Made by a program: the position numbers and the translations under genes
Shown here: piece after piece, positions 3,717-40,490 of the stretch
Layout: the number at the start of each line of letters is the position of its first letter
Position numbering within the stretch: position 1 is the stretch's first letter
Assembly: GCA_018819325.1 (NCBI GenBank)
Contig: JAHJQJ010000031.1
Coordinates: 1-42,158, forward strand
Length of the DNA stretch: 42,158 nt
Direction of reading: 5' to 3'
Source: Patescibacteria group bacterium
GTDB taxonomy: Bacteria; Patescibacteriota; Microgenomatia; UBA1400; MFAQ01
The notes under the pieces: model-generated
What the model was told of the DNA's origin: nothing
Database searches by the model: none
Seen by the model: the letters and a program-made list of their open reading frames with translations, nothing else

Positions 3717-4388
3717 ATGCCAGGAAGGAAAGAGCTGTTGGTAACGGGTGAGTATTATCATGTTTTTAATAAAGGTATAGACCAGAGGAGTACGTTTGAT
3801 GATAAAAGTGACTATAAAAGAATGGTTGAGACGCTTGGATTTTATCGGTTTATGGAGCCTGGCATTAGATTGTCGAGATATTTTGAATATGAGGAGAAAA
3901 TGAAGAATGAATATCTTGAGAATTTGGAATCTGAGGATTTATTGGTTGATGTACTGGTTTATGAACTGATGCCGAACCATTTTCATTTAATTATTAGACA
4001 ATTGGTGGATGGAGGATTATCTTTGTATATGAGTCGGGCAATAAATAGCTATACTCGTTATTTTAATGTTCGTCATGAGAGGAAGGGAGGACTGTTTACT
4101 GGAAATTTTAAGGCGGTAAGGATTGGGTCTGCTGAACAGATGAAGCATGTTTCAAGGTATGTGCATTTAAATTTGTATACAGCAAAAATTGTGAATAATT
4201 TTCGTGCGTTAGCTGGTTACGAATGGTCGTCATTGCCAGAGTACCTGGGTAAAAAAGATGGTTTGTGTAATAAAGAAATGATTTTGGGGTTGTTTGGTGA
4301 TAATGTTGAGAGATATTGGAAGTTTATAAAAGATGGGTCTGATTATCAGAGGAGGTTGAGTGAGATTAAAAAATTGATGTTGGAGTAA
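3717..4388 (+). CDS. IS200-like Y1 (HUH) transposase, REP-associated tyrosine transposase class (RAYT-1)
   Basis: YHVFNKG N-terminal motif, HUH motif LMPNHFHLIIRQ and catalytic-Tyr region VSRYVHLNL. Flanked on both sides by REP-A. Confidence 0.85.
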   Translation: MPGRKELLVTGEYYHVFNKGIDQRSTFDDKSDYKRMVETLGFYRFMEPGIRLSRYFEYEEKMKNEYLENLESEDLLVDVLVYELMPNHFHLIIRQLVDGGLSLYMSRAINSYTRYFNVRHERKGGLFTGNFKAVRIGSAEQMKHVSRYVHLNLYTAKIVNNFRALAGYEWSSLPEYLGKKDGLCNKEMILGLFGDNVERYWKFIKDGSDYQRRLSEIKKLMLE

Positions 4389-9781: not shown

Positions 9782-10104
9782 TGAAGATTAATAAATTAAA
9801 GAACATGAAGGGCGGGTGGTTTGTGGGTGATTTTGTGCCAAGTGTGTTTAGAACCAAGGATTTTGAGGTGGCGTATATGACTCACTATAAGGGTCAGGAA
9901 TGGCCGAAGCATTATCATAAAGTAGCGAGTGAGATTAATTATTTAATTAGAGGAAAGATGAAGATAAATAGAGAGATATTGGAGGAAGGGGATATTTTCG
10001 TGATTGAGCCTGGGGAGGTGGTAAAGCCTGAATTTATGAGTGACTGTGAGTTAATAGTGGTTAAAACGCCAAGTGTGGTAGGAGATAAATATGAGATTGA
10101 ATAG
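9781..10104 (+). CDS. Cupin-fold protein
   Basis: 107 aa with HYHK...E...GD...P.G pattern typical of small cupins. Its start overlaps the upstream stop codon. Confidence 0.45.
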   Translation: MKINKLKNMKGGWFVGDFVPSVFRTKDFEVAYMTHYKGQEWPKHYHKVASEINYLIRGKMKINREILEEGDIFVIEPGEVVKPEFMSDCELIVVKTPSVVGDKYEIE

Positions 10105-11269
10105 AAAGAAATACAACAAAAATAAGTATCTGGTGGTGGAGTATTTTTTGCAGTCTAAGACCAGTTTGCAAGAGGCGGCTTGGGCGATTGCGGTGGGACA
10201 AAGTATTGGTAATCCCAATGTGCGTAATGGTTGGGAGACAAAGGAGTTGGTTGAAAAACATGTGGCGTTGATATTGGCAGAAAAAGAAAAGTTAGAGAAG
10301 GAAAAACAGGGAAGAGTGAAAATTGCTTTTCCTTTGGCGAATATTAACCTGAAGGAAGATGGAGTGAGTCAGTTGTTGGTGCAGATAATGGGGGGGCAGT
10401 TGGATATAGGGATAATTAACAAGTGTTTTGTAGAGGATATTGAATTACCAAATGATTTTAGGTTTTTTAAGCCCAAATTTGGCGTTGAAGGGATTAGAAA
10501 GTTCACAGAAGTTTATAACAAGCCTTTGTTGGGAGGAATAATAAAACCCAAGGTGGGGTTGAGGCCAAAACAGTTGTTGGAAGTGGTTAAAGAAATGGTG
10601 GAAGGCGGGGTTAATTTTATTAAGGAAGACGAGATAATGGCTAACCCTGATTGTTGCCCATTGGAAGAACGAGTAAGTTTAGTGATGAAGTACTTGAAAG
10701 GTAAAAGGGTGATATATGCGGTGTGTGTGAACGGGGATTATCCGTATGTAATTGATAGGGTGAAAAAGGTTTATAAACTGGGTGGTAACGCGGTGCATGT
10801 GAACTGGTGGGCTGGTTTTGGGGTGTATAAGGCTATTAGAGAGTTGGATTTGCCTTTGTTTTTGTTTTTTCAGAAAAGTGGGGATAAGATAATTACTAAC
10901 GAGAAACACGCGTTTCATATTAAATGGAAGGTGATGTGTAAGTTGGCGGGCATGATGGGGGTGGACATGATTCATGCCGGTATGTGGGGAGGGTATTTAA
11001 GTGATGATCAAAAGAGTTTGAAAGAAATAATGGATGAGTTGTCTAGTCTGGGTGTGTTACCGTCTTTGAGTTGTGGGATGCACCCTGGTTTGGTGGGGGT
11101 TGTAAGCAAAAAATTTGGGGTGGATTACTTGGCTAACGTAGGTGGGGCGATTCATGGCCACCCGGGTGGTACCAAGGCTGGGGCGATGGCTATGAGACAG
11201 GCGATTGATGGGGTGGAAGGCAAAGAGTATGGTTTGGCGGTAAAAAAATGGGGGAAAGTTGCATTTTAA
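10091..11269 (+). CDS. RuBisCO large-subunit superfamily protein, probably a RuBisCO-like protein (form IV-like)
   Basis: GGIIKPKVGL (K175/K177 equivalents), GGVNFIKEDE (K201, D203, E204 equivalents) and GGAIHGHPGGTKAGAMAMRQA. By eye alignment, the E60/T65/W66 region reads AVGQSIGNP, the N123 region reads MGG, the H294-R295 region reads FFQKSG, and the K334 position is GG. Confidence 0.7.
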   Translation: MRLNRKKYNKNKYLVVEYFLQSKTSLQEAAWAIAVGQSIGNPNVRNGWETKELVEKHVALILAEKEKLEKEKQGRVKIAFPLANINLKEDGVSQLLVQIMGGQLDIGIINKCFVEDIELPNDFRFFKPKFGVEGIRKFTEVYNKPLLGGIIKPKVGLRPKQLLEVVKEMVEGGVNFIKEDEIMANPDCCPLEERVSLVMKYLKGKRVIYAVCVNGDYPYVIDRVKKVYKLGGNAVHVNWWAGFGVYKAIRELDLPLFLFFQKSGDKIITNEKHAFHIKWKVMCKLAGMMGVDMIHAGMWGGYLSDDQKSLKEIMDELSSLGVLPSLSCGMHPGLVGVVSKKFGVDYLANVGGAIHGHPGGTKAGAMAMRQAIDGVEGKEYGLAVKKWGKVAF

Positions 11270-17768: not shown

Positions 17769-18557
17769 ATGAGGATGTATTGTGTTGTTTGTGGTGAGAA
17801 GTCAGATAAGAATAAGTTTATTTTTAGAAAGATATTGACTGATGGTTTGGTTTTGGATTGGGGTTTGACTGATAAACAAAGGCGGGGAAGAGACGAGAAA
17901 GAGTCTATGTTTTGCCCGGTGTGTAGCAGTTCAATGAGGTCTAGGGCTTTGGCTAGGGGAATAATGGAATCAAGATTTTTTAAGGGCGTAAATAACTTGA
18001 CTGAGTGGGTGGAAGTGGCTTCTAAAGTTGGGCTTAAGGTGGCGGAGATAAATTATTGTGGTGATTTGCACCCTATATTGAATAAACTACCTGGTTTGGT
18101 TCTGAGCCAGTATAGCGAGGTTAGTTTTAGGGCTAGGTTTTTTAATTGGTTGAAAGGAGTTAAAAAGGAGGATATTACAAACCTTTCATACGAAGATAAT
18201 AGTTTTGACTTGGTAGTTCATAGTGAAGTTTTAGAACATGTATATGATGTGGACAGGGCCTTAAGTGAGTGTGGGAGGATATTGAAACCTAATGGGGTTT
18301 GTGTGTTTACCATACCGGTAATAATGAGAAGAAAGACGATTAAAAGAGCAGAGGTTGATAGAGAAACTGGTGAGATTAAGTACTTGCTTAAACCTTCATA
18401 TCACGGATCTGGAGAAAAGAATAATTTAGTTTTTTGGGAATTTGGAGGTGATTTTATAAAGAATAGAGGGTTGAAAGTGTTGTTTGGGTCTTCCCAAAAC
18501 GGTGTGTATGTTTTTATTATTAACAAAGGTGAGACCTTGGTTAAGAATCGAGGATGA
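17769..18557 (+). CDS. Class I SAM-dependent methyltransferase with N-terminal Cys-pair zinc-ribbon-like motifs
   Basis: CVVCGE...CPVCSS, then NSFDLVVHSEVLEHV and LKPNGVCVFTIP. The last 9 codons are encoded by a REP-B copy. Confidence 0.7.
   Translation: MRMYCVVCGEKSDKNKFIFRKILTDGLVLDWGLTDKQRRGRDEKESMFCPVCSSSMRSRALARGIMESRFFKGVNNLTEWVEVASKVGLKVAEINYCGDLHPILNKLPGLVLSQYSEVSFRARFFNWLKGVKKEDITNLSYEDNSFDLVVHSEVLEHVYDVDRALSECGRILKPNGVCVFTIPVIMRRKTIKRAEVDRETGEIKYLLKPSYHGSGEKNNLVFWEFGGDFIKNRGLKVLFGSSQNGVYVFIINKGETLVKNRG
18520..18544 (+). repeat. REP-B palindrome copy (TTAACAAAGGTGAGACCTTGGTTAA)
   Basis: Contains the stop codon of RAYT-2 (minus strand) and the 3' end of the methyltransferase gene (plus strand). 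Confidence 0.85.
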
Positions 18558-19194
18558 GAGATTTGATGGTGGGTAGAAGCTGATCTTTTTTGCCGTCCTC
18601 GACAAAATTTTTGTATGCCAAAGGGGTTTTGAAGTGGTTGATGATGGTTTGAGTGTGAACCCAAGAGGTGTTTTTTAGTTTCATATAGTCTGAATAGCTT
18701 GAAGGTTGGCTGGTTAGTGGTTTTGGATGGGGATTGAGGTGTATGTAACGTGATAAATGAATAAATTGCTCCTCTGTGTTTACTAGAACTGCTTTGTAAG
18801 CGCTTTCGAAAAGTGTACCTGATCTTTGATGTTGTTTGTTGAAGTAGGTAGTGTAACGGGCTGTTAGTGATTTCATAAAATATTGAATATCACGATTTAA
18901 CTCTTGCTTGACAAGTAAGTGAAAATGGTTGGGCATAAGACAGTAAGCAATGAGGATGATATTTTGATTGTAGTTGCAACATTGATAACCTTTGATTTGA
19001 TAAGTTTTTTCGTTGATCGATATTTCCCTTTTTGGGTTTTTGGAAGGAATTGGGGAGAGATATTCTTTTAGGTAGCTTAGGAAAACGGCGTAGTCTTGTT
19101 TGTTTTGGTAAATTGTTCGTTTGTCTACGCCGCGGTTGTATAGATGGTAGTAACTATTTGGTTTGTAGGTTTTGACAATGTTTTTGGCAGGCAT
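18541..19194 (-). CDS. IS200-like Y1 (HUH) transposase, RAYT class (RAYT-2)
   Basis: YHLYNRG, HUH motif LMPNHFHLLVKQ, Tyr region LSRYIHLNP. Start set at MPAKNIV (ATG 19194) by analogy with RAYT-1 and RAYT-3 and because of a TACAAT-N6-ATG arrangement. Flanked by REP-B. Confidence 0.85.
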   Translation of the reverse strand: MPAKNIVKTYKPNSYYHLYNRGVDKRTIYQNKQDYAVFLSYLKEYLSPIPSKNPKREISINEKTYQIKGYQCCNYNQNIILIAYCLMPNHFHLLVKQELNRDIQYFMKSLTARYTTYFNKQHQRSGTLFESAYKAVLVNTEEQFIHLSRYIHLNPHPKPLTSQPSSYSDYMKLKNTSWVHTQTIINHFKTPLAYKNFVEDGKKDQLLPTIKSLILDS

Positions 19195-19217
19195 GATTTT
19201 ATTGTAGCAAATTAACT

Positions 19218-19242
19218 TTAACAAAGGTGAGACCTTGGTTAA
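19218..19242 (+). repeat. REP-B palindrome copy
   Basis: 23 nt upstream of the RAYT-2 start (minus strand). Same sequence as 18520-18544. Confidence 0.85.
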
Positions 19243-32593: not shown

Positions 32594-32645
32594 GGGATTG
32601 GGCTCTGCAGGCCAGAAGGCCAGTCCAAAATTGGCAGCGGGACGG
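32594..32645 (+). repeat. Palindromic element PE-F copy (GGGATTGGGCTCTGCAGGCC...GGCAGCGGGACGG)
   Basis: Family with 5 copies. This one is followed by the conserved module GATTTTGTTGACATGTT.TG.TATATT.TTAAT, also found at 41905-41945. Confidence 0.8.
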
Positions 32646-32685: not shown

Positions 32686-33357
32686 TTAACTCGTTTTGGA
32701 TGGGCGTTTACGCTGGTTCGAACGAGTTTTTGTTTGCCAGAATTTTCTGGCTATTTTTTTCCAACTAATTGTTTTTTCGACGATTATTTTTTCTTTAATT
32801 AACTGATAAAATTTGTCGTTTTTGTTTGTTGTTGCCCAGAGAACACTGCCAGCAATCATGTCTGCTGAATTTACGGCGGGTACTTTTTGGCTGTCAACGT
32901 GGCTGATAGCGAATTTTTTCTTTAGAAGTTTTGTTAAGATTAGGTCGAATTCTTCTTGATCTATTAAACGGTGAAAGTGGCGGTCAAATATGATTTTTTT
33001 TAAGTTGTTTTGGTAAAGTAGCTTGCATTCTTCTATTAATTGCCAACAGAGGATGGCAAAGTTTTCGGGTGAGTCTTTGATTGATTTTCCTTGTTTTTCG
33101 ACGATTAAAACAAAGATGTCGATGTTTTTGTTGGCAAGAGTTTTTAGGAACTTTGTTTTGGTTTTATCTCCTGCCCTGTAAAATTTTATTTCAGATAACT
33201 TTTTAGCGTCACGGGTTTTTCTGATGGTTTTTGTTACAGAAGTTAGTTGAGAAATTATATTGGTGCCAACTGCGGCAACTATTACTACTTTGTCTTTTGG
33301 ATCAGGTAGGGTGCCGGATTCGTCGATGAAGATGGTGATGTTTAGTTTATTTAGCAT
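32686..33357 (-). CDS. DUF3800-like protein
   Basis: N-terminal ITIFIDESGTL motif typical of DUF3800, 223 aa. Lies inside the insertion at the comM 3' end. Confidence 0.5.
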   Translation of the reverse strand: MLNKLNITIFIDESGTLPDPKDKVVIVAAVGTNIISQLTSVTKTIRKTRDAKKLSEIKFYRAGDKTKTKFLKTLANKNIDIFVLIVEKQGKSIKDSPENFAILCWQLIEECKLLYQNNLKKIIFDRHFHRLIDQEEFDLILTKLLKKKFAISHVDSQKVPAVNSADMIAGSVLWATTNKNDKFYQLIKEKIIVEKTISWKKIARKFWQTKTRSNQRKRPSKTS

Positions 33358-33387: not shown

Positions 33388-33446
33388 GGGACAGGGGGGA
33401 CTGGGGACCGATGCCAAAGGCCGGTGCAATATCGGCACTGGGACGG
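33388..33446 (+). repeat. Palindromic element PE-F-like, diverged copy
   Basis: GGGACAGGGGGGACTGGGGACCGATGCCAAAGGCCGGTGCAATATCGGCACTGGGACGG. Confidence 0.6.
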
Positions 33447-33481
33447 CTTAGGTCGCGGTGTCTCATGAGGTGGACGCAGGC

Positions 33482-33560
33482 TAGGTTACAGTTAAGCATA
33501 GCTTGCTCTAGTTTGGCAATAGCCAGATCTTGGTCGGCGAATCTGATGGAGTGGGCGGAG
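33482..33560 (-). pseudogene. Fragment of a four-helix-bundle (23S IVS/Avd family) gene
   Basis: About 84 percent nucleotide identity (by eye) to 40210-40288 of the intact gene 39977-40489. It lacks both gene ends and is fused to the right copy of the comM 3' repeat through the microhomology GTGG(G)CGG. Confidence 0.7.
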
Positions 33561-33588
33561 GCGTTGCAGTATAGGATTAAGGTTTTTT
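33551..33588 (+). repeat. Right copy of the 37-38 bp direct repeat (duplicate of the comM 3' end)
   Basis: GTGGGCGGAGGCGTTGCAGTATAGGATTAAGGTTTTTT. It would encode the same AEALQYRIKVF-stop tail. Confidence 0.9.
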
Positions 33589-34217: not shown

Positions 34218-34868
34218 ATGCCTGCCAAACATACTTATAGGGAATTTATTGAAAATCATCCTCAACACATTTTTAATCGTGGTGTAGAAAAACGTGTCAT
34301 ATTTACAAATCAACAAGATTACCGAACGTTTTTGTACTATTTGACAATTTACCTGGCTAAACCAAAAACACTTGAAACTAGATTTCCCACCTTACCAGGA
34401 AACCTGAAAATCAACAACGTTAGTGAACAAATTAAATTACTTACTTATTGCTTTATGCCCAACCATTTTCATTTACATCTTGCTCCTACAAATATAGAAA
34501 CCAGCCAGGAAATTATACCTAAATTTATGCGTCAACTTAGTAATGCATATACTGGTTATTTTAATAAAAAATATGACAGAGTTGGCCCATTGTTTCAGGG
34601 ACGTTATAAATCCGTCTTGGTTAGCTCAGATGAACAAAATGTCCACCTGCATAGGTATATCCAGACTAATCCGTTGACTGCAAAGTTAGTTAAAAATTTG
34701 CAAGATTGGCCGTGGTCAAGTTATCATGAATACGTTGGTGGGCAAAAATTGGACGATATTTGTCAAATAGAGGATATCTTTTCGCGATTTAAGAATCTTG
34801 ATTCTTATAAGAATTTCTTGCTTGAGCAAGTGGATACTGAATCAATTGAATCCATTCTGCTGGATTAA
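34218..34868 (+). CDS. IS200-like Y1 (HUH) transposase, RAYT class (RAYT-3)
   Basis: HIFNRG, HUH motif FMPNHFHLHLAP, Tyr region LHRYIQTNP. TACAAT-N6-ATG start context. Flanked by REP-C. Confidence 0.85.
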   Translation: MPAKHTYREFIENHPQHIFNRGVEKRVIFTNQQDYRTFLYYLTIYLAKPKTLETRFPTLPGNLKINNVSEQIKLLTYCFMPNHFHLHLAPTNIETSQEIIPKFMRQLSNAYTGYFNKKYDRVGPLFQGRYKSVLVSSDEQNVHLHRYIQTNPLTAKLVKNLQDWPWSSYHEYVGGQKLDDICQIEDIFSRFKNLDSYKNFLLEQVDTESIESILLD

Positions 34869-35226: not shown

Positions 35227-35272
35227 GGGATCAACCTTCGCTAGGGTCCGACCCTCTTGAGGGTCGGACCCT
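35227..35272 (+). repeat. REP-C palindrome copy
   Basis: Identical to 34871-34916. It sits between the giant fibre gene stop codon and the XRE start. Confidence 0.9.
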
Positions 35273-35273
35273 G

Positions 35274-38200
35274 TTACATGGTTTGGATGAGCCAGTAGTT
35301 GAATTGGATGTTCGAATTGATAGCTTCTGGGATGGCGATGGTGAATTGCCCCCCAGTTGGATAGCTCGCTTCGCTCCCATCCAACGGGGTCTGCAGACCT
35401 GCGGTCTTTGATTTTACAAACAGGGTTTGGTTTGAAGTGCTGGATGTAGGGGTTAAATATATGTAGGTGTCTTGGGTAACATTTGTGTTCGAAATGGTGA
35501 TTTCGGTTTCGCCTGCTGGGAGGGTGGCGGCCCCAGTTGGGTAGTTCACTTCGTTCACACCCAACAAGGTCTGCGCCCCTGGTTGGATAGCTGATGCATC
35601 CAACGGGGTCTTCGAACTTGCAGTGCTTGATGGCGGTTCGGCTTGTACGGTAAGACTGGTTATAGTCAGTGAAGAAATGGTGGCGGTTTGGGCGGTGAGG
35701 TTTTCTAGGTTGGATTCTAGGGCCTCTATTTTGCTGGCTAGGACTTTGCCCGTAACGGCTAGGTCGCCGTTTATTATAACTTGGCCGTTTGGGGTTAAGG
35801 TCATGAGGCCGGCCAAAAGGTTTATGGGGGCGTTGGCTAGGGGTTGGAGGAAGAGGGTGTCTTGATCTTTGGAGTTGAGGATGTTGGCGATGAGGGAGTT
35901 GTTGACTTGGAGGTCGGTGAGGATGAGAGAATCGAGAGGGACAGGGCTCTGCAGGTCAGAGACCGGTTCAATTTCGGCAGCGGGACGCTGAAGATCTGCT
36001 AGGATGGCGGAGGCTGTGGAGTATTTGGTGGCTAGGTCGAGGAGGTCTTTTTCTATCTGGCTGATTTGGGGGGCGGTGATGGTCTCGGCAACTAGGTTCT
36101 TGACCTCTAGATCTTCTATGTAGGCAACAGGTGAGATGAGTTTTTGTTTGACGGTGAGGGTGTTTACGGTTAGGTCTTGGATGACGGCGATGCCTGCTTG
36201 GAAGTTGGCGATAACGGCTTCTGAGAAAGCACCGATACGGGTGATGAGGGTGTCGGTGGTAGTGTTTTTGAGAGTGTAACTGCTTTCTTGACCTTGAATT
36301 TGCAGTTCGCCAGTGGAGGTTAAGTAGACGTCGGGGTCGTACCAGGAAACATTGACAAAAACTATGATTTTGCCGACCACATTTGGATCAGAATTATTGT
36401 AAGATTCTAAAGCTTTTCCTACAATCGGCCCTGCTTTGGTTGCTTTCATTCCCACTCCTGGAATTTTACTTGAAGTGATAAGGTCTCCGCTTTTAATTGG
36501 GCCATTAATAGTTGAGACTTTGGTGGTTACCCGGCCGGCTAAGGCAATTGGAGCCTTTTGATTATCCGGGATGTTTTCAGTAATTTTTCCCTCGATTACT
36601 TGTGAGGGGGTGGTGGAATAAATACCTATAATGCTAGAGTCGCTTGCTTTATTACTTTTTTTAACATAAGTGGGTTTTTGCGGATCATTGACAACAATAT
36701 CTCCTTCTTCAACGGGGGGAGTAATGGGAAAGATTTCTGCTAAGTCCGGGTGACTTCCCGTAATTCTGACATTGCCCTGAAAATAACCGGCCCATTCAGT
36801 ATTGGCGGCTCCCAAATCTGCTCTGGCATATAAAGCAATAGATGTGGTTTCTGCACCGCCTATTTGTCCTTCAGCCTGTCTAGTATCGATATAAACACCG
36901 TAGGTGGTGTGGCCTCCAATTGTTAGATTTCCTAGAGTAGTATTATTTGTGTAAAATTTGGCCATTGTATAATCAGCATCAGCAGATGGGGAAAGTGGGC
37001 CACTGGCATAAGTGTGAAATTTTGTTTCCGGCTCCGTCGTCCCGATGCCGACGTTGCCGTTGTTTTGTATAAACATACTGTTTCCAGCATCACCTGATCC
37101 AGTGGCGAGATACATATGTCCACCATAAAACCTTATATAAGATTGTCCAAGGTTTAAGTTCCTTCGTCCATAGTAAGGACTTCCATTGACATTATTTCCA
37201 ATACCTGATCCATCGTATGTCCATCCGGGTTCTGATGCCCACATATCCAAAGAGGCATCTAAAGTTGCGCCATTACCTGTTGAGTATAATCTTGCTTTAG
37301 TATCTCCATGACCTCCATATACTTCTAATTTCACTCCCGGACTTATCGTCCCGATGCCGACGTTGCCGTTTATTGCTAATTTCGCCGTCCCGGGGTTTAC
37401 ATAACCAATACCAATGTTGCCAGAGCTAGCAATATATAGATTATTAACCAAAGGAGTAATTTGTAACTGTTGTTCTTTAATTCCAGCAATAGCATAAGGG
37501 ATCATATTAGAAGAATTTAAATAAAGCAGGCCGTCTGTTTCAGTAACGCTATTTGGAAATACTTGCTGATATTCTTGAGCAATAAAGTTGTAGTAATCTG
37601 TGTTAACAACACTAGGATGAGCAGATAAAAATTCAGAAGTATAGTGAAACTTAACAGGGCGAACTTGGCTTATAATCTCCAAAGCATTGTTAATACTCTC
37701 AACACTAGTTTTAATTCTAGCATCTGACCCTGTTGCCCATGTGGTAGTAGTCAGTTTTCGAGCAGAATCTGTAGATAAATCTAATTGTGCTCCCGGATTC
37801 ATCGTCCCGATGCCGACGTAGCCGTTTCCTGTTATCCTCATCCTTTCAGTTGGAAGAACGGCCGCATCGTTACTGCCCAACCCGAACGCCATATATTCAG
37901 TTTCCCATACATCAGTAGCAAATCCCGCCTGGATATTTGCAACGCGCCTAACACCTGTATCAGCAGGATAATTATAAAATGTTCCCCAGAAATCATAATT
38001 TGAAACGAGATTATTGGTTCCACTTAAAGGCTTAATTCTAATTGTAGGACTTCCCGAATCTGACACTTCCAACTTCGCCCCCGGACTCGCCGTCCCGATG
38101 CCGACGTTGCCGGATTCCGTGAGACGCATCAATTCGCTACCGGCCCCGAAGCCAGCACCATTTTTTCTCCATGAAAAGTAGCGAGTATCCGCATCATTGT

Positions 38201-39980
38201 TGTCATAGTCAATGTTGAAGCTTATGCTTTGCTTCCCCTCAAAGAAAGTGTCGCCTCCATTGTCGTCTCTAATACCGTTTCTCAAATAAGCGGTATTTAG
38301 CGCATAAAGAGTACCACCTAATACATACAGACCACCCGGCATAATAATATACGAGGTTGCCTTTATGTACGGATTAGCTGCAGAAAAAAGTATATTACCG
38401 CCTGCGTCTTGAACATCAGTAATAGTCAATCTGTCATTAGTCTCTAAAGTTCCCTGAACTTCAAGTTTCGCCCCCGGTCCCGCCGTCCCGATGCCGACGT
38501 TGCCAGTATTCATAACAAACAAATTTTCTCTGATCCGTACACTTCCTGTTGCGCCATCGCCAGTGTAATTAAGATATAAATCTCCACCACTTGTAGTACC
38601 ACCACCATTTATTACCAAATGAGAAGTAGTGCCACGGATGTAAGGTCTGTCAGTAACAGCAGCATTATTGGCAGAAATATTTAGATATGAAGTTCGAATC
38701 GCGTTATTCGGATTTCCACCAATATCTAATGAGGCCCCCGGACTCGCCGTCCCGATGCCGACGTTGCCTGAACTGTTGACATAAAATTTATCATTAAGTG
38801 CAAAATAACCATTTAATTTGGTTTGTGATCTGACTGTGCCTGAACCTGCAGATAGAGTTCCACTATAAAGTGTTCCTGCATCGTGCCCTCCAATATATTG
38901 AAGGCCAAGATAAACAGAAATGGCTTGAGTGAAATATACCTCTAGGAATGAGTTTGTACCATCATCAGTAACCCGAACATCAGTCCAGTAGCTAGCTGGA
39001 TACTCTGAGATTACGCTTATTCCCGCAGTTGATCCCCAATCATGCCACCAGCGTATAGTTGTGCTTTGAGGAGCGTAGGATCCTCCCGCTGTATAGACAG
39101 TTACTTGCTGTTGACCCCTGCCGGCGCTACCGTCTATATGAGCTACTTTGTACCAACCAGCGGCCGCAACACTTCCAGTAGTTTTATATTCATTTTGTGC
39201 GTAAAACCCGCCAGTTCCTAGGTATACGTAACCTCCATTAACAGTAACATTATCAGCAAAGGTGGCCATGGACGAGGCGAGAGTTAATTTTGCAACATCA
39301 GCTCTTCTAAGAGAAAGATCTTCATCATAACTACTGATAATGCCGGTATCAACAGTAATTCCTGGATTAAAATAAAATCTGACTCGATCGGACTGGAAAT
39401 GAGCCCAGCTGGCGTTCTGCGGGCCTACATCAACGTAGCCGTAGCCAGTATCAATTCGAAGAGCTCCACTTATATTACCTCTTACTGAGCCAGCAACTTC
39501 TAATTTCGCCCCCGGTCCCGCCGTCCCGATGCCGATGCCAGTGGCGTTGGCGGAGATGGTTTGGCCGCCGATTCTGATATGGCCAGTGGTGCCGTCGCCG
39601 AGGGTGAGGCCTGGATTGGTGGCGTCGGTGGCGATTAGATCTAAAAACTTGGCGTTGCCTGAAGCGTCGACGTAGTAGGCGGTGCCGTTGGCGAAGTAAC
39701 TGGCGCCGGTAACTAAGGTGTTGTGGGCCAAAATTCCATTGGCGACGAAGTTATGGGTGCCGTCTACTTCTATATCGTAGACTTGCTGCCGGCCGAGGGG
39801 TTTGATGGAGGTGATTTCTTCGAAGAGGAGGTCTGAAGGGACAGGGCTCTGCAGGCCAGAGGCCGGTGCAACATCGGCAGCGGGACGCACGGCAATTTTG
39901 TCACCTACCTTGAGATGGCGGGTTTCTGTCCAGATGGCGGTTTTACCCCGAAGAGATAACTTCCGTTGGTCGTATCTCAT
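35274..39980 (-). CDS. Giant (1568 aa) fibre/adhesin-like protein: N-terminal partial Hint (intein) domain, repeated GNVGIGTxxPGAKLEV modules, internal peptidase-S74-like chaperone domain, second fibre region, coiled/beta C-terminal region
   Basis: Uninterrupted ORF. N-terminus ends ...VYDIEVDGTHNFVANGILAHN|T. Seven or more GNVGIGT modules. The SDARIKTSVESINNALEIISQVRPVKFHY...FIAQEYQQVFP segment is typical of tail-fibre intramolecular chaperone domains. Four in-frame palindromic inserts. Confidence 0.8.
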   Translation of the reverse strand: MRYDQRKLSLRGKTAIWTETRHLKVGDKIAVRPAADVAPASGLQSPVPSDLLFEEITSIKPLGRQQVYDIEVDGTHNFVANGILAHNTLVTGASYFANGTAYYVDASGNAKFLDLIATDATNPGLTLGDGTTGHIRIGGQTISANATGIGIGTAGPGAKLEVAGSVRGNISGALRIDTGYGYVDVGPQNASWAHFQSDRVRFYFNPGITVDTGIISSYDEDLSLRRADVAKLTLASSMATFADNVTVNGGYVYLGTGGFYAQNEYKTTGSVAAAGWYKVAHIDGSAGRGQQQVTVYTAGGSYAPQSTTIRWWHDWGSTAGISVISEYPASYWTDVRVTDDGTNSFLEVYFTQAISVYLGLQYIGGHDAGTLYSGTLSAGSGTVRSQTKLNGYFALNDKFYVNSSGNVGIGTASPGASLDIGGNPNNAIRTSYLNISANNAAVTDRPYIRGTTSHLVINGGGTTSGGDLYLNYTGDGATGSVRIRENLFVMNTGNVGIGTAGPGAKLEVQGTLETNDRLTITDVQDAGGNILFSAANPYIKATSYIIMPGGLYVLGGTLYALNTAYLRNGIRDDNGGDTFFEGKQSISFNIDYDNNDADTRYFSWRKNGAGFGAGSELMRLTESGNVGIGTASPGAKLEVSDSGSPTIRIKPLSGTNNLVSNYDFWGTFYNYPADTGVRRVANIQAGFATDVWETEYMAFGLGSNDAAVLPTERMRITGNGYVGIGTMNPGAQLDLSTDSARKLTTTTWATGSDARIKTSVESINNALEIISQVRPVKFHYTSEFLSAHPSVVNTDYYNFIAQEYQQVFPNSVTETDGLLYLNSSNMIPYAIAGIKEQQLQITPLVNNLYIASSGNIGIGYVNPGTAKLAINGNVGIGTISPGVKLEVYGGHGDTKARLYSTGNGATLDASLDMWASEPGWTYDGSGIGNNVNGSPYYGRRNLNLGQSYIRFYGGHMYLATGSGDAGNSMFIQNNGNVGIGTTEPETKFHTYASGPLSPSADADYTMAKFYTNNTTLGNLTIGGHTTYGVYIDTRQAEGQIGGAETTSIALYARADLGAANTEWAGYFQGNVRITGSHPDLAEIFPITPPVEEGDIVVNDPQKPTYVKKSNKASDSSIIGIYSTTPSQVIEGKITENIPDNQKAPIALAGRVTTKVSTINGPIKSGDLITSSKIPGVGMKATKAGPIVGKALESYNNSDPNVVGKIIVFVNVSWYDPDVYLTSTGELQIQGQESSYTLKNTTTDTLITRIGAFSEAVIANFQAGIAVIQDLTVNTLTVKQKLISPVAYIEDLEVKNLVAETITAPQISQIEKDLLDLATKYSTASAILADLQRPAAEIEPVSDLQSPVPLDSLILTDLQVNNSLIANILNSKDQDTLFLQPLANAPINLLAGLMTLTPNGQVIINGDLAVTGKVLASKIEALESNLENLTAQTATISSLTITSLTVQAEPPSSTASSKTPLDASAIQPGAQTLLGVNEVNYPTGAATLPAGETEITISNTNVTQDTYIYLTPTSSTSNQTLFVKSKTAGLQTPLDGSEASYPTGGQFTIAIPEAINSNIQFNYWLIQTM
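35351..35411 (+). repeat. Palindromic element PE-E copy, in frame within the fibre gene
   Basis: Translated on the minus strand as LQTPLDGSEASYPTGG. It interrupts the conserved C-terminal domain between KSKTAG and QFTIAI. Confidence 0.8.
35531..35630 (+). repeat. Palindromic element PE-E, 1.5 tandem copies, in frame within the fibre gene
   Basis: Translated on the minus strand as KTPLDASAIQPGAQTLLGVNEVNYPTGA. Confidence 0.8.
35938..35987 (+). repeat. Palindromic element PE-F copy, in frame within the fibre gene
   Basis: Translated on the minus strand as RPAAEIEPVSDLQSPVP. Confidence 0.8.
37446..37730 (-). other. Peptidase S74-like intramolecular chaperone auto-processing domain (internal, aa ~751-845)
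   Basis: GSDARIKTSVESI..ALEIISQVRPVKFHY...YNFIAQEYQQVFPNSV...LLYLNSSNMIPYAIAGIKEQ matches the SD.R.K...L.PV.F.Y...GFIAQE...P pattern of endosialidase/tail-fibre chaperone domains. Confidence 0.7.
39720..39980 (-). other. Partial Hint/intein domain (degenerate block B, blocks F and G, terminal HN followed by Thr +1)
   Basis: GKTAIWTETRH-LKVGDKIAV...LLFEEITSIKPLGRQQVYDIEVDGTHNFVANGILAHN|T. Compare the DnaB mini-intein GRTIKATANH...VFDLTVPGPHNFVANDIIVHN (from memory). Block A with Cys/Ser1 is absent. An in-frame stop lies 6 codons upstream of the ATG. Confidence 0.75.
39838..39887 (+). repeat. Palindromic element PE-F copy, in frame within the Hint fragment
   Basis: Translated on the minus strand as RPAADVAPASGLQSPVP, at the position where inteins carry linker or endonuclease insertions. 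Confidence 0.8.
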
Positions 39981-40489
39981 GGGGTCTGCGATTTGTTAAT
40001 TTTCATAAACTTTTGCCAGGAGCGTTGGAGGTTTAGGATTTTGCGGCGGACGGTGAGGTAGTCTTTTTGTAGTTGGTCGGTGTCAAGTTCATTAAGGACA
40101 GACCCTCCCTCGGCCCGATGGCCGAGAGGGCCCGCGGCTGTAGCCGCTCCTGTTAGGGTCTGACCTTTTTCCGTTTTCAAGTCTCTGTATTGATCTAAGT
40201 AAACTACCATTAGGTTACAGTTAAGCATGGCTTGCTCTAGGTTGGCAATAGCACGATCTGGGTCAGCAAACCTAACGGAGTGGGCGGTGGCGATGAGTTT
40301 GGGAATGGAGAGGGCAGTTTTGTAAAGGACTGTCCTTCCCTCGGCTTCATAGCCGAGAGGGCCCGCGGCTGTAGCCGCTCCTTTTAAGGACAGACCTTTA
40401 CAAACCTTAATGGCTAGGTTGTGGGTTTGTTGGTAGACGTCTAGATCTTGGAAGGATTTTACTGGGCGTCTGGGTTGATACTTGTACAT
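39977..40489 (-). CDS. Four-helix-bundle protein (23S rRNA intervening-sequence protein / DGR Avd family)
   Basis: KSFQDLDVYQQTHNLAIKV...ALSIPKLIATAHS...AIANLEQAMLNCNLMVVYL is characteristic of the family. Its stop codon overlaps the fibre gene start (ATGA). Two in-frame 74-78 nt double-hairpin inserts. Confidence 0.75.
   Translation of the reverse strand: MYKYQPRRPVKSFQDLDVYQQTHNLAIKVCKGLSLKGAATAAGPLGYEAEGRTVLYKTALSIPKLIATAHSVRFADPDRAIANLEQAMLNCNLMVVYLDQYRDLKTEKGQTLTGAATAAGPLGHRAEGGSVLNELDTDQLQKDYLTVRRKILNLQRSWQKFMKINKSQTP
40094..40167 (+). repeat. Double-hairpin element PE-I copy 1, in frame within the 4HB gene
   Basis: Outer stem AAGGACAGACCCT/AGGGTCTGACCTT enclosing the hairpins CTCGGC-CCGATG-GCCGAG and GCGGCT-GT-AGCCGC. 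Translated as TGAATAAGPLGHRAEGGSVL. Confidence 0.85.
40323..40400 (+). repeat. Double-hairpin element PE-I copy 2, in frame within the 4HB gene
   Basis: Same architecture as copy 1. Translated as KGAATAAGPLGYEAEGRTVL. Confidence 0.85.
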
Positions 40490-40490
40490 A

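Follow-up and report, generated by a model that had tools for sequence, protein, structure and literature searches.

A probable split intein in a giant fibre gene of a Patescibacteria group bacterium

The DNA analysed here, referred to as the window, is a stretch of 42,158 nucleotides (nt) from a Patescibacteria group bacterium (assembly GCA_018819325.1, contig JAHJQJ010000031.1). On its minus strand a giant open reading frame (ORF) for a fibre protein begins inside an intein. In our proposal a giant fibre gene of a Candidate Phyla Radiation (CPR) bacterium has been 'fractured', its downstream half lies in the window, and trans-splicing of a split intein rejoins the two halves; we put the probability of this reading at about 0.75. 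The fibre would then probably be stitched from two separately made proteins. Sequence comparison establishes a two-ORF architecture, complementary intein motifs in the two halves, conservation of both halves and a tight packing of the genes. The intein sits at a repeated fibre motif, ...GNVGIGT..P..KLHV.G(N/Q)|C...HN|T..., and an inserted run of genes breaks it between block B and block N4.

The C-terminal intein half at the start of the fibre ORF

The fibre ORF and the parts of the C-terminal intein half (IntC) with which it begins are as follows:

35274-39980, minus strand: giant fibre ORF, 1,568 amino acids (aa), 1,568 open codons
39720-39980, minus strand: IntC, the putative C-terminal half of a split intein, codons 1-87, ending in His86-Asn87, with matches to PF14890 and TIGR01443
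39717-39719, minus strand: Thr88, the +1 residue and predicted C-extein nucleophile, by direct reading of the sequence
39888-39938, minus strand: N4 block 'AIWTETRHLKVGDKIAV', aa 15-31, by alignment to the family and to the Npu DnaB mini-intein 4o1r
39720-39782, minus strand: blocks F and G, VYDIEVDGTHNFVANGILAHN, aa 67-87, at Pfam profile positions 115-155
35274-39719, minus strand: C-extein of 1,481 fibre residues with GNVGIGT..P..KLEV repeats, a Peptidase_S74 domain and a K1-lyase_C-like end

The N-terminus of the ORF reads MRYDQRKLSLRGKTAIWTETRHLKVGDKIAVRPAADVAPASGLQSPVPSDLLFEEITSIKPLGRQQVYDIEVDGTHNFVANGILAHN|TLVTGASY..., with IntC ending in ...NGILAHN|T. Before the start codon the minus strand reads ...TAA CAA ATC GCA GAC CCC ATG. 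The in-frame TAA 6 codons 5' of the ATG, from which the original prediction had excluded a longer N-terminus, was confirmed, and no other start codon lies between the two. The ATG overlaps the TGA stop of the preceding 170-aa ORF by 4 nt (ATGA).

That prediction, made from the sequence alone, had the ORF begin with the C-terminal lobe of an intein that ends in an HN|T junction, and the profile searches bore it out. Pfam Intein_splicing (PF14890) matched aa 48-87 at profile positions 115-155 of 155 (E 5e-10 for a 97-residue fragment) with 39.7 bits, above the curated cut-off of 35.8, and TIGR01443 (NCBIfam intein_Cterm) matched residues 67-88 with E 4e-11. At E <1, 43 solved intein chains matched IntC, led by the Spl DnaX mini-intein with E 2e-8, and a family hidden Markov model (HMM) built in this analysis scored IntC at E 3e-30. 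Blocks F and G (VYDIEVDGTHNF...ILAHN|T), the penultimate His86, the terminal Asn87 and a Thr at +1 are present, the His and Asn as predicted; family members normally carry Thr at +1. Judged by these matches, the C-terminal Hint lobe with its HN|T junction is genuine and far above chance.

The identity of the block that precedes it had to be revised. The segment 'GKTAIWTETRH' had been read as a degenerate block B followed by a deletion of about 13 residues. The family alignment and the alignment of the fused halves place 'GKTAIWTETRHLKVGDKIAV' on N4 ('INGWKRLDELTPKEHLAL') instead, so that His22 is not the histidine of block B and nothing is deleted after it. 'AIWTETRHLKVGDKIAV' aligns with the motif W.KV..L..GD.IAV in 37 split and 44 contiguous members of the family, and also with 'GWKRLDELTPKEHLAL' of the Npu DnaB mini-intein 4o1r. 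Where relatives have a contiguous intein, this motif comes after block B, as ...IRTTGNHPYL[4-260 aa]W.KV..L..GD.IAV..., and because of this order we assign 'AIWTETRHLKVGDKIAV' to block N4. A pairwise alignment to the Spl DnaX mini-intein had set His22 on block B, but was overruled by the family and fused-halves alignments. The true block B (VTAGHPLL) is carried by the partner protein.

Two side observations concern the rest of the fibre ORF. Peptidase_S74 is an intramolecular chaperone domain that cleaves itself; here it lies mid-fibre at aa 752-812 with about 750 residues after it, not at the C-terminus. Directly 3' of the fibre stop codon stands a 14-nt inverted repeat (35243-35272), perfect and with a gap of 2 nt.

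The partner half, the cassette and the recurrence of the split

The window is nearly the whole contig, which ends 237 nt upstream of a 476-aa ORF. A motif scan and the family HMM, run over all six frames of the 42-kb window, found no N-terminal intein half (IntN), and no other window gene had a precomputed intein Pfam match. The exact 170-aa product led to a sister contig from another sample, L122 (ERZ928008 k127_336051, 3,983 nt), which is 99.7% identical to window positions 39517-42158 over 2,642 nt and extends 1,341 nt (1.3 kb) further upstream than the window end. Its first ORF reads AGNVGIGTASPSQKLHVVGN|CLTGDALLPIRRRKKKK...YQEVYQVTTKSGKTIKVTAGHPLLTLAKQ*, that is, the fibre repeat motif, then Cys1 with block A, then block B. 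The end of this ORF, ...KLHVVGN|CLTGD...VTAGHPLLTLAKQ*, is IntN. Cys1 of block A (HVVGN|CLTGDALL...) and the TxxH of block B (KVTAGHPLL) are both present on L122 and both lie outside the window. Block B has the form T-A-G-H, with the stop codon 7 residues past the His, and a poly-Arg/Lys stretch lies between Cys1 and TAGH. A search for a complementary half had been suggested, with the expectation of about 60 aa and a Cys at position 1; the half was found on the same strand 3.0 kb upstream and has the Cys, but it is longer, with 147 aa from Cys1 to the stop in L122 and about 98 aa in the close relative L123, which is free of repeat inserts.

The two halves were joined in silico. The fusion of IntN and IntC scored 68.6 bits against Pfam Intein_splicing in a single stretch over profile positions 26-155, while IntN alone gave 28.7 bits over positions 26-73 and IntC alone 39.7 bits over 115-155. 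Trimmed of repeats, the fusion aligned to residues 32-142 of the 142 residues of the Npu DnaB mini-intein 4o1r with E 1e-14, placing 'vtaGHplltlakgkta.iwtetrhlkvgdkiav' over 'atGNHkfltingwkrldeltpkehlalp'. The C-terminal piece had been thought able to serve either as IntC of a split intein or for C-terminal cleavage. The complementary IntN speaks for the former; cleavage without ligation is treated below as a rival.

From the IntN stop to the IntC ATG, L122 spans 3,016 nt on the same strand, with the order GIY-YIG gene, 141-aa ORF, 476-aa ORF, 170-aa ORF and IntC ATG. The cassette genes that fall into the window are:

39977-40489, minus strand: four-helix-like protein of 170 aa, encoded at the end of the cassette, with homologues between nuclease gene and IntC elsewhere
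40491-41921, minus strand: 476-aa protein with a Zn-ribbon, a helical (IS1 InsA-like) part and a C-terminal RecB-type PD-(D/E)XK domain, by Pfam and NCBIfam
42012-42158, minus strand: last 48 codons and stop of the 141-aa cassette ORF, cut by the window end (full ORF at L122 1063-1488 and L124 750-1175)

The genes are closely packed, with a 1-nt gap between the 476-aa and 170-aa ORFs and the 4-nt overlap of the latter with IntC. On L122 the start of the GIY-YIG gene (186 aa, PF01541 with E 1e-14) overlaps the IntN stop. A scan for promoters and terminators returned counts inside the range of shuffled sequence.

The 476-aa protein, which a gene caller starts later (470-aa version), matched Pfam PDDEXK_1 with 22.4 bits at its C-terminus and an NCBIfam Zn domain of IS1/IS1595 type. 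Residues H376, D378, D391, K393, Q404 and Y408 are invariant in 43 sequences. The family numbers at least 1,872 clusters, from Patescibacteria and named 'PD-(D/E)XK nuclease family protein' or 'transposase-like'. Its AlphaFold model is of low confidence overall (pLDDT 57), and the top Foldseek matches were nuclease domains of AddA, RecB and Cas4, which agree with one another although none of them is significant. The 170-aa gene had been dismissed as an unrelated four-helix-bundle gene; it belongs instead to the intein-splitting cassette and is conserved there. The window protein, a version trimmed of inserts and two homologues had no Pfam or NCBIfam match, and a profile of 30 family members had no match in the PDB. 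A single-sequence AlphaFold model shows four long helices at a mean pLDDT of 62, with two low-confidence loops at the insertion sites of 75-nt elements, and Foldseek with this model gave no match reaching E 0.001. The protein is, on this model, describable only as 'four-helix-like'. An identification as '23S rRNA intervening sequence protein' with a four-helix bundle was not borne out, as there was no profile match or relative of solved structure.

The arrangement recurs widely. When residues 1-140 were run exhaustively with HMMER against 1.84 billion representative proteins, 2,387 matches were returned, where a word-indexed search with the same residues had returned none. About 30 of the best 150 of the 2,387 relatives start with the same IntC piece within their first few tens of residues; P0001, which is 83% identical, begins MLDKLKTAIWTETRHLKVGDRIAV..., P0003 begins MLNRLKKAIWTETRHLKVGDKIAV... 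and P0049 begins MLNKLKNTIWTKVSKLKVGDKIAV.... IntC ORFs of Saccharibacteria begin M..LKKMRGDKKGWYKVSDLVAGLEIAV..., and the contigs L009 (657 kb), L010 and L011 of this group have the same order of IntN, cassette and IntC. Their IntN-ended giant fibre ORFs measure 2,421-2,447 aa and end in ...TTANHPFLARR... or ...TTGNHPYLVKMN; they are followed by homologues of the 476-aa protein (51-52% identical) and of the 170-aa protein (38-50%) and then by an IntC-first fibre ORF, with a free-standing NYN gene in the cassette of L009 only. A further example is the close relative L123, whose nuclease is 74% identical. Its fibre N-part is 2,700 aa or more in length, contains 30 GxVGIG motifs and ends ...KLHVVGN|CLTGD...VTAGHPLLALINKNKI*; a 139-aa ORF, the nuclease gene and the four-helix-like gene come next, and then MLLDKLKTAIWTETRHLKVGMKIAVRPDDSNELEFDEIISIKPLGRQQVYDIEVQGTHNFVANGILAHN|TLVSGASY.

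A metagenome scan with the 476-aa family covered the best 80 of at least 490 loci, with HMMs for IntN, IntC and the two cassette proteins. The four-helix-like gene followed the nuclease gene in 75 of the 75 loci where the sequence allows this to be seen. The fully flanked loci were distributed as follows:

IntN and IntC: 14 of 41
neither half: 26 of 41
IntC only: 1 of 41
IntN only: 0 of 41

The break point is fixed. The IntN model match ends about 3 residues beyond HPYL, and in 32 of 32 terminal IntN the stop falls 0-32 residues past that match. IntC ORFs start with a Met, mostly 5-24 residues ahead of W.KV, and HN|T is preserved in 24 of the 26 full-length IntC matches of the family. Dozens of loci from different CPR lineages, 45-85% identical, share these start and stop positions, and all split loci examined have their break between block B and N4. 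The halves stand on separate ORFs, each fused to a part of the fibre, with ends conserved in more than 30 loci, as expected of a split intein. A comparison with orthologues had been proposed to reveal whether this locus is a truncated copy of a contiguous gene: the nearest relatives share the start, which is no one-off truncation, although contiguous versions with a full intein do exist in Omnitrophota and elsewhere, next to numerous conserved split ones.

Proposed trans-splicing and the rival readings

The region from IntN to IntC would be transcribed as a single unit, and the two proteins would associate via their intein halves to complete one Hint fold. Class-1 splicing would then proceed by a thioester at Cys1, attack by Thr88 and cyclisation of Asn87. 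The ligated single chain would exceed 4,000 residues and have the junction ...KLHVVGN-TLVTGASY...; the predicted junction peptide is LHVVGN-TLVTGASYFANGTAYYVDASGNAK, with the tryptic form LHVVGNTLVTGASYFANGTAYYVDASGNAK. The intervening nuclease genes may be the mobile, selfish part, which broke the intein and keeps the arrangement spreading.

Several points weigh against this reading. The case for trans-splicing, that is, excision of the intein with ligation of its flanks, is made at the level of sequence. IntN is seen on the sister contig from another sample and not on the window's own contig. In 26 of 41 loci the nuclease/four-helix-like pair is found away from inteins, just behind complete fibre genes, and because of this a role of the pair as homing endonuclease is not established. 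The close relative L124 has IntN and the cassette and then a DUF3800 gene in place of IntC. Folding could be impaired by the repeat insertions of this strain: IntN has two, the linker of IntC has one, and another takes the place of the IntC leader. Finally, pairwise dN/dS, from pairs limited to dS 0.15-1.6, had medians of 0.32 (IntC) and 0.23 (IntN) and did not rise above 0.49; dS is near saturation and the values are therefore rough. Even so read, these ratios show purifying selection on both halves.

Outside split inteins, all 6 loci inspected had the pair immediately behind a fibre-like gene and on its strand, and a crude motif count placed it after a fibre-like gene in at least 14 of the 26 non-intein loci. 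Its place after fibre genes therefore ties it to fibre genes and not to inteins only. The non-intein loci comprise L047, L081, L084, L093, L099, L117 and about 20 more. A variable small gene often lies between the fibre end and the pair; by sequence reading these are MazF-like, Bro-N-like and NYN-like ORFs. In the window, a fragment of a second four-helix-like gene (33446-33562, minus strand) adjoins a DUF3800 gene (32686-33357, minus strand), a pairing that matches L124, where DUF3800 replaces IntC after the cassette.

These loci leave room for a wider, tentative reading that we consider unlikely: the split intein and the Zn-ribbon/PD-(D/E)XK plus four-helix pair might form a module for fibre diversification, with the intein halves as a universal adaptor at the protein level. 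The pair may mobilise the DNA that follows it, and an acquired tip beginning with IntC could be joined to a resident shaft ending in IntN, with no need for in-frame recombination of DNA. If true, the module would be a protein-splicing analogue of the switching of tips and cassettes in phage fibres and polymorphic toxins.

A rather improbable alternative to trans-splicing is docking without ligation, in which IntC acts as a non-covalent adaptor or removes itself by Asn cyclisation (C-cleavage), so that two chains remain. His86-Asn87 alone would be enough for C-cleavage, which is a known side reaction of solved split inteins (PMC10189870). However, Cys1 and TxxH of IntN and the Thr at +1 are conserved along with HN and are needed for neither docking nor cleavage alone, and IntN and IntC occur together in 14 of 15 informative loci.

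We give still less credit to a dead remnant, in which a fibre gene with an intein was inactivated when the cassette inserted and its downstream piece decays behind an ATG kept by chance. Several repeat elements have invaded both halves in the window strain and the start codon is itself derived from a repeat, as this would lead one to expect, yet the ORF is open across all its codons, start and stop positions are shared by dozens of loci at the identities given above, dN/dS is <0.5 in both halves and the catalytic residues are retained. An artefact of assembly or gene calling, with a truly contiguous intein and chimeric joins as the intervening genes, is hardly credible: metagenome contigs are short, repeat-rich fibre genes are prone to misassembly and the window contig ends within the cassette, but the same gene order appears in independent assemblies, samples and pipelines (ENA, JGI, NCBI metagenome-assembled genomes, the 657-kb Saccharibacteria contig), with stops and starts at conserved positions. 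Conservation across lineages and independent assemblies thus disfavours both of these readings.

Known inteins, contiguous relatives and short repeats

Trans-splicing of the fibre halves, the reading we prefer, has its closest precedent in the fractured genes of Dassa et al. 2009 (PMC2677866), which combine split inteins with an endonuclease gene that stands free. In both cases a host gene is halved by a split intein, nuclease genes on the same strand lie between the halves and frames overlap; GIY-YIG is among the endonuclease types there, and one is found in this cassette. Free-standing endonuclease genes (GIY-YIG, PD-(D/E)XK) thus stand between IntN and IntC as in that class. The hosts differ, being DNA synthesis and repair enzymes, mostly of phage, in the earlier set and a giant repetitive CPR surface fibre here. 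According to the same work, all but one of the split inteins found in nature have their break at the endonuclease-insertion region; here the break is not at the homing-endonuclease region between N4 and block F but one block earlier, between B and N4. The present cassette has 2-4 genes, and its constant members are the Zn-ribbon/RecB-type PD-(D/E)XK and four-helix-like genes, not GIY-YIG or Vsr-like ones.

In typical natural split inteins IntN measures about 100 aa and IntC 35-40 aa (PMC10189870). Like cyanobacterial DnaE and gp41-1, the present intein is a two-piece Hint domain with Cys1, TxxH, block F, HN and a +1 nucleophile, and it matches solved structures. With inserts removed, IntN has about 98 aa and ends before N4, while IntC has about 69 aa and is longer because N4 is included. 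Atypical split inteins break near the N-terminus and have a very short IntN, such as the 15 aa of PolB16 OarG (PMC10189870). The longer IntC and the non-canonical break recall these, but IntN here keeps blocks A and B, and neither its length in L122 nor that in L123 fits a short IntN devoid of block B.

Bacterial intein-like (BIL) and pre-toxin Hint domains occur in variable secreted proteins, and the likeness lies in a Hint domain within a hypervariable surface or secreted protein rather than a conserved enzyme. Here, in contrast, all intein splicing motifs and the +1 nucleophile are retained, and the contiguous relatives lie between two like fibre modules, which would be expected for splicing rather than cleavage. 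Phage records yielded only ordinary inteins in terminases and helicases and none in a fibre. We found no description of inteins in giant proteins of CPR or Omnitrophota or in tail fibres, in a literature search that most subscription journals lay beyond.

The fractured-gene concept itself dates from 2009; new here are the CPR giant fibre as host, the break point, the constant two-gene cassette and the graded intermediate forms. Few split inteins are known from nature, most of them in phage or cyanobacterial replication enzymes, and a large and diverse set in giant surface fibres of CPR bacteria, with dozens of loci, is an unusual host range. The B-N4 break point is of direct use to protein engineers in search of orthogonal pairs. 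For annotation, fibre lengths and gene counts are misjudged if the two ORFs are taken as separate proteins.

Of the family's contiguous inteins we examined 44 (Omnitrophota, Planctomycetia, Gammaproteobacteria and CPR giant proteins). They sit at the same motif within single giant fibre ORFs, and some of these giant proteins hold 2-4 inteins each. Classified by the B-to-N4 spacer (short, 4-35 aa; long, 106-260 aa) and by the N4-to-F linker, which ranges over 18-300 residues, they fall as follows:

B-to-N4 short, N4-to-F short: 0 of 44
B-to-N4 short, N4-to-F long: 18 of 44
B-to-N4 long, N4-to-F short: 24 of 44
B-to-N4 long, N4-to-F long: 2 of 44

The family therefore has two alternative sites for nested domains. 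A nested insert of 106-260 aa occupies the B-to-N4 loop in 26 of the 44, in several cases with an NYN nuclease domain; the split forms are broken at this site and have short N4-to-F linkers. In L083 (56-1663) IntN and the Zn-ribbon/PD-(D/E)XK protein share one open, stop-free frame, a fusion that is a possible intermediate between nested and free-standing nuclease. One family thus offers a graded series, from contiguous inteins through inteins with domains nested at either site and an IntN-nuclease fusion to fully split ones with 2-4 free-standing genes, and so makes the proposed route from intein to split intein testable.

Among these relatives the NYN (PIN-like nuclease) domain is nested in frame in inteins, at either site, and also stands free beside the cassette (L016, L009 7559-8092, L099 4207-4755 and the proteins P0010, P0013, P0020 and P0025); no paper on an NYN domain together with an intein was found in the literature searched. 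P0083 (L054 1720-3195) has a split-type IntC start and an extein of no more than 22 residues (TYISGNLGIGTTNPLQKLHVEGQ), behind which a further intein begins at once, so that consecutive repeats of the fibre motif each carry an intein. In the Omnitrophota fibre inteins of L015 (300-1565) and L019 (4209-4944) the strand opposite the long N4-to-F region carries toxin-antitoxin genes that look intact, by sequence reading DUF433 with a PIN-like gene and HicA/HicB, and the sense frame is open.

Short repeats run in frame through the window's intein half and cassette:

39832-39888, minus strand: 57-nt dispersed repeat in the N4-to-F linker, in frame, aa 31-50, one of four copies
35932-35988, 41830-41886 and 32600-32644: the other 57-nt copies
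39937-39990, minus strand: repeat of about 54 nt supplying the ATG and first ~12 codons (MRYDQRKLSLRG), by its match in L122
40094-40168, minus strand: 75-nt palindromic element, copy 1, inserted within a loop of the 170-aa gene and in frame, DNA fold z-score -5.1
40325-40399, minus strand: 75-nt palindromic element, copy 2, likewise within a loop of that gene and in frame, DNA fold z-score -6.6

An 18-aa PE-F element had been noted in the linker before block F; the insert is there, but by nature it is a copy of the 57-nt repeat, which L123 lacks at this linker. The ~54-nt repeat is 92.6% identical to L122 525-578, where the GIY-YIG gene that immediately follows IntN begins, and IntC ORFs of relatives start MLDKLK or MLLDKLK where the window has this repeat. 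The outer stem of the 75-nt element co-varies between its two copies. At least three kinds of repeat (57, 75 and ~54 nt) lie in frame in the fibre, IntC and both cassette genes, and also in IntN and the GIY-YIG gene of L122; the related fibre P0003 shows the same peptide signatures. In-frame palindromic elements of Rickettsia show a similar pattern.

Three Y1_Tnp genes of the window (IS200/IS605-type, like transposases associated with repetitive extragenic palindromes; 3717-4388, plus strand; 18541-19224, minus strand; 34218-34868, plus strand) are candidate mobilisers of the short repeats. A RuBisCO large-subunit-like gene (10091-11269, plus strand) lies amid genes for glycosyltransferases and methyltransferases.

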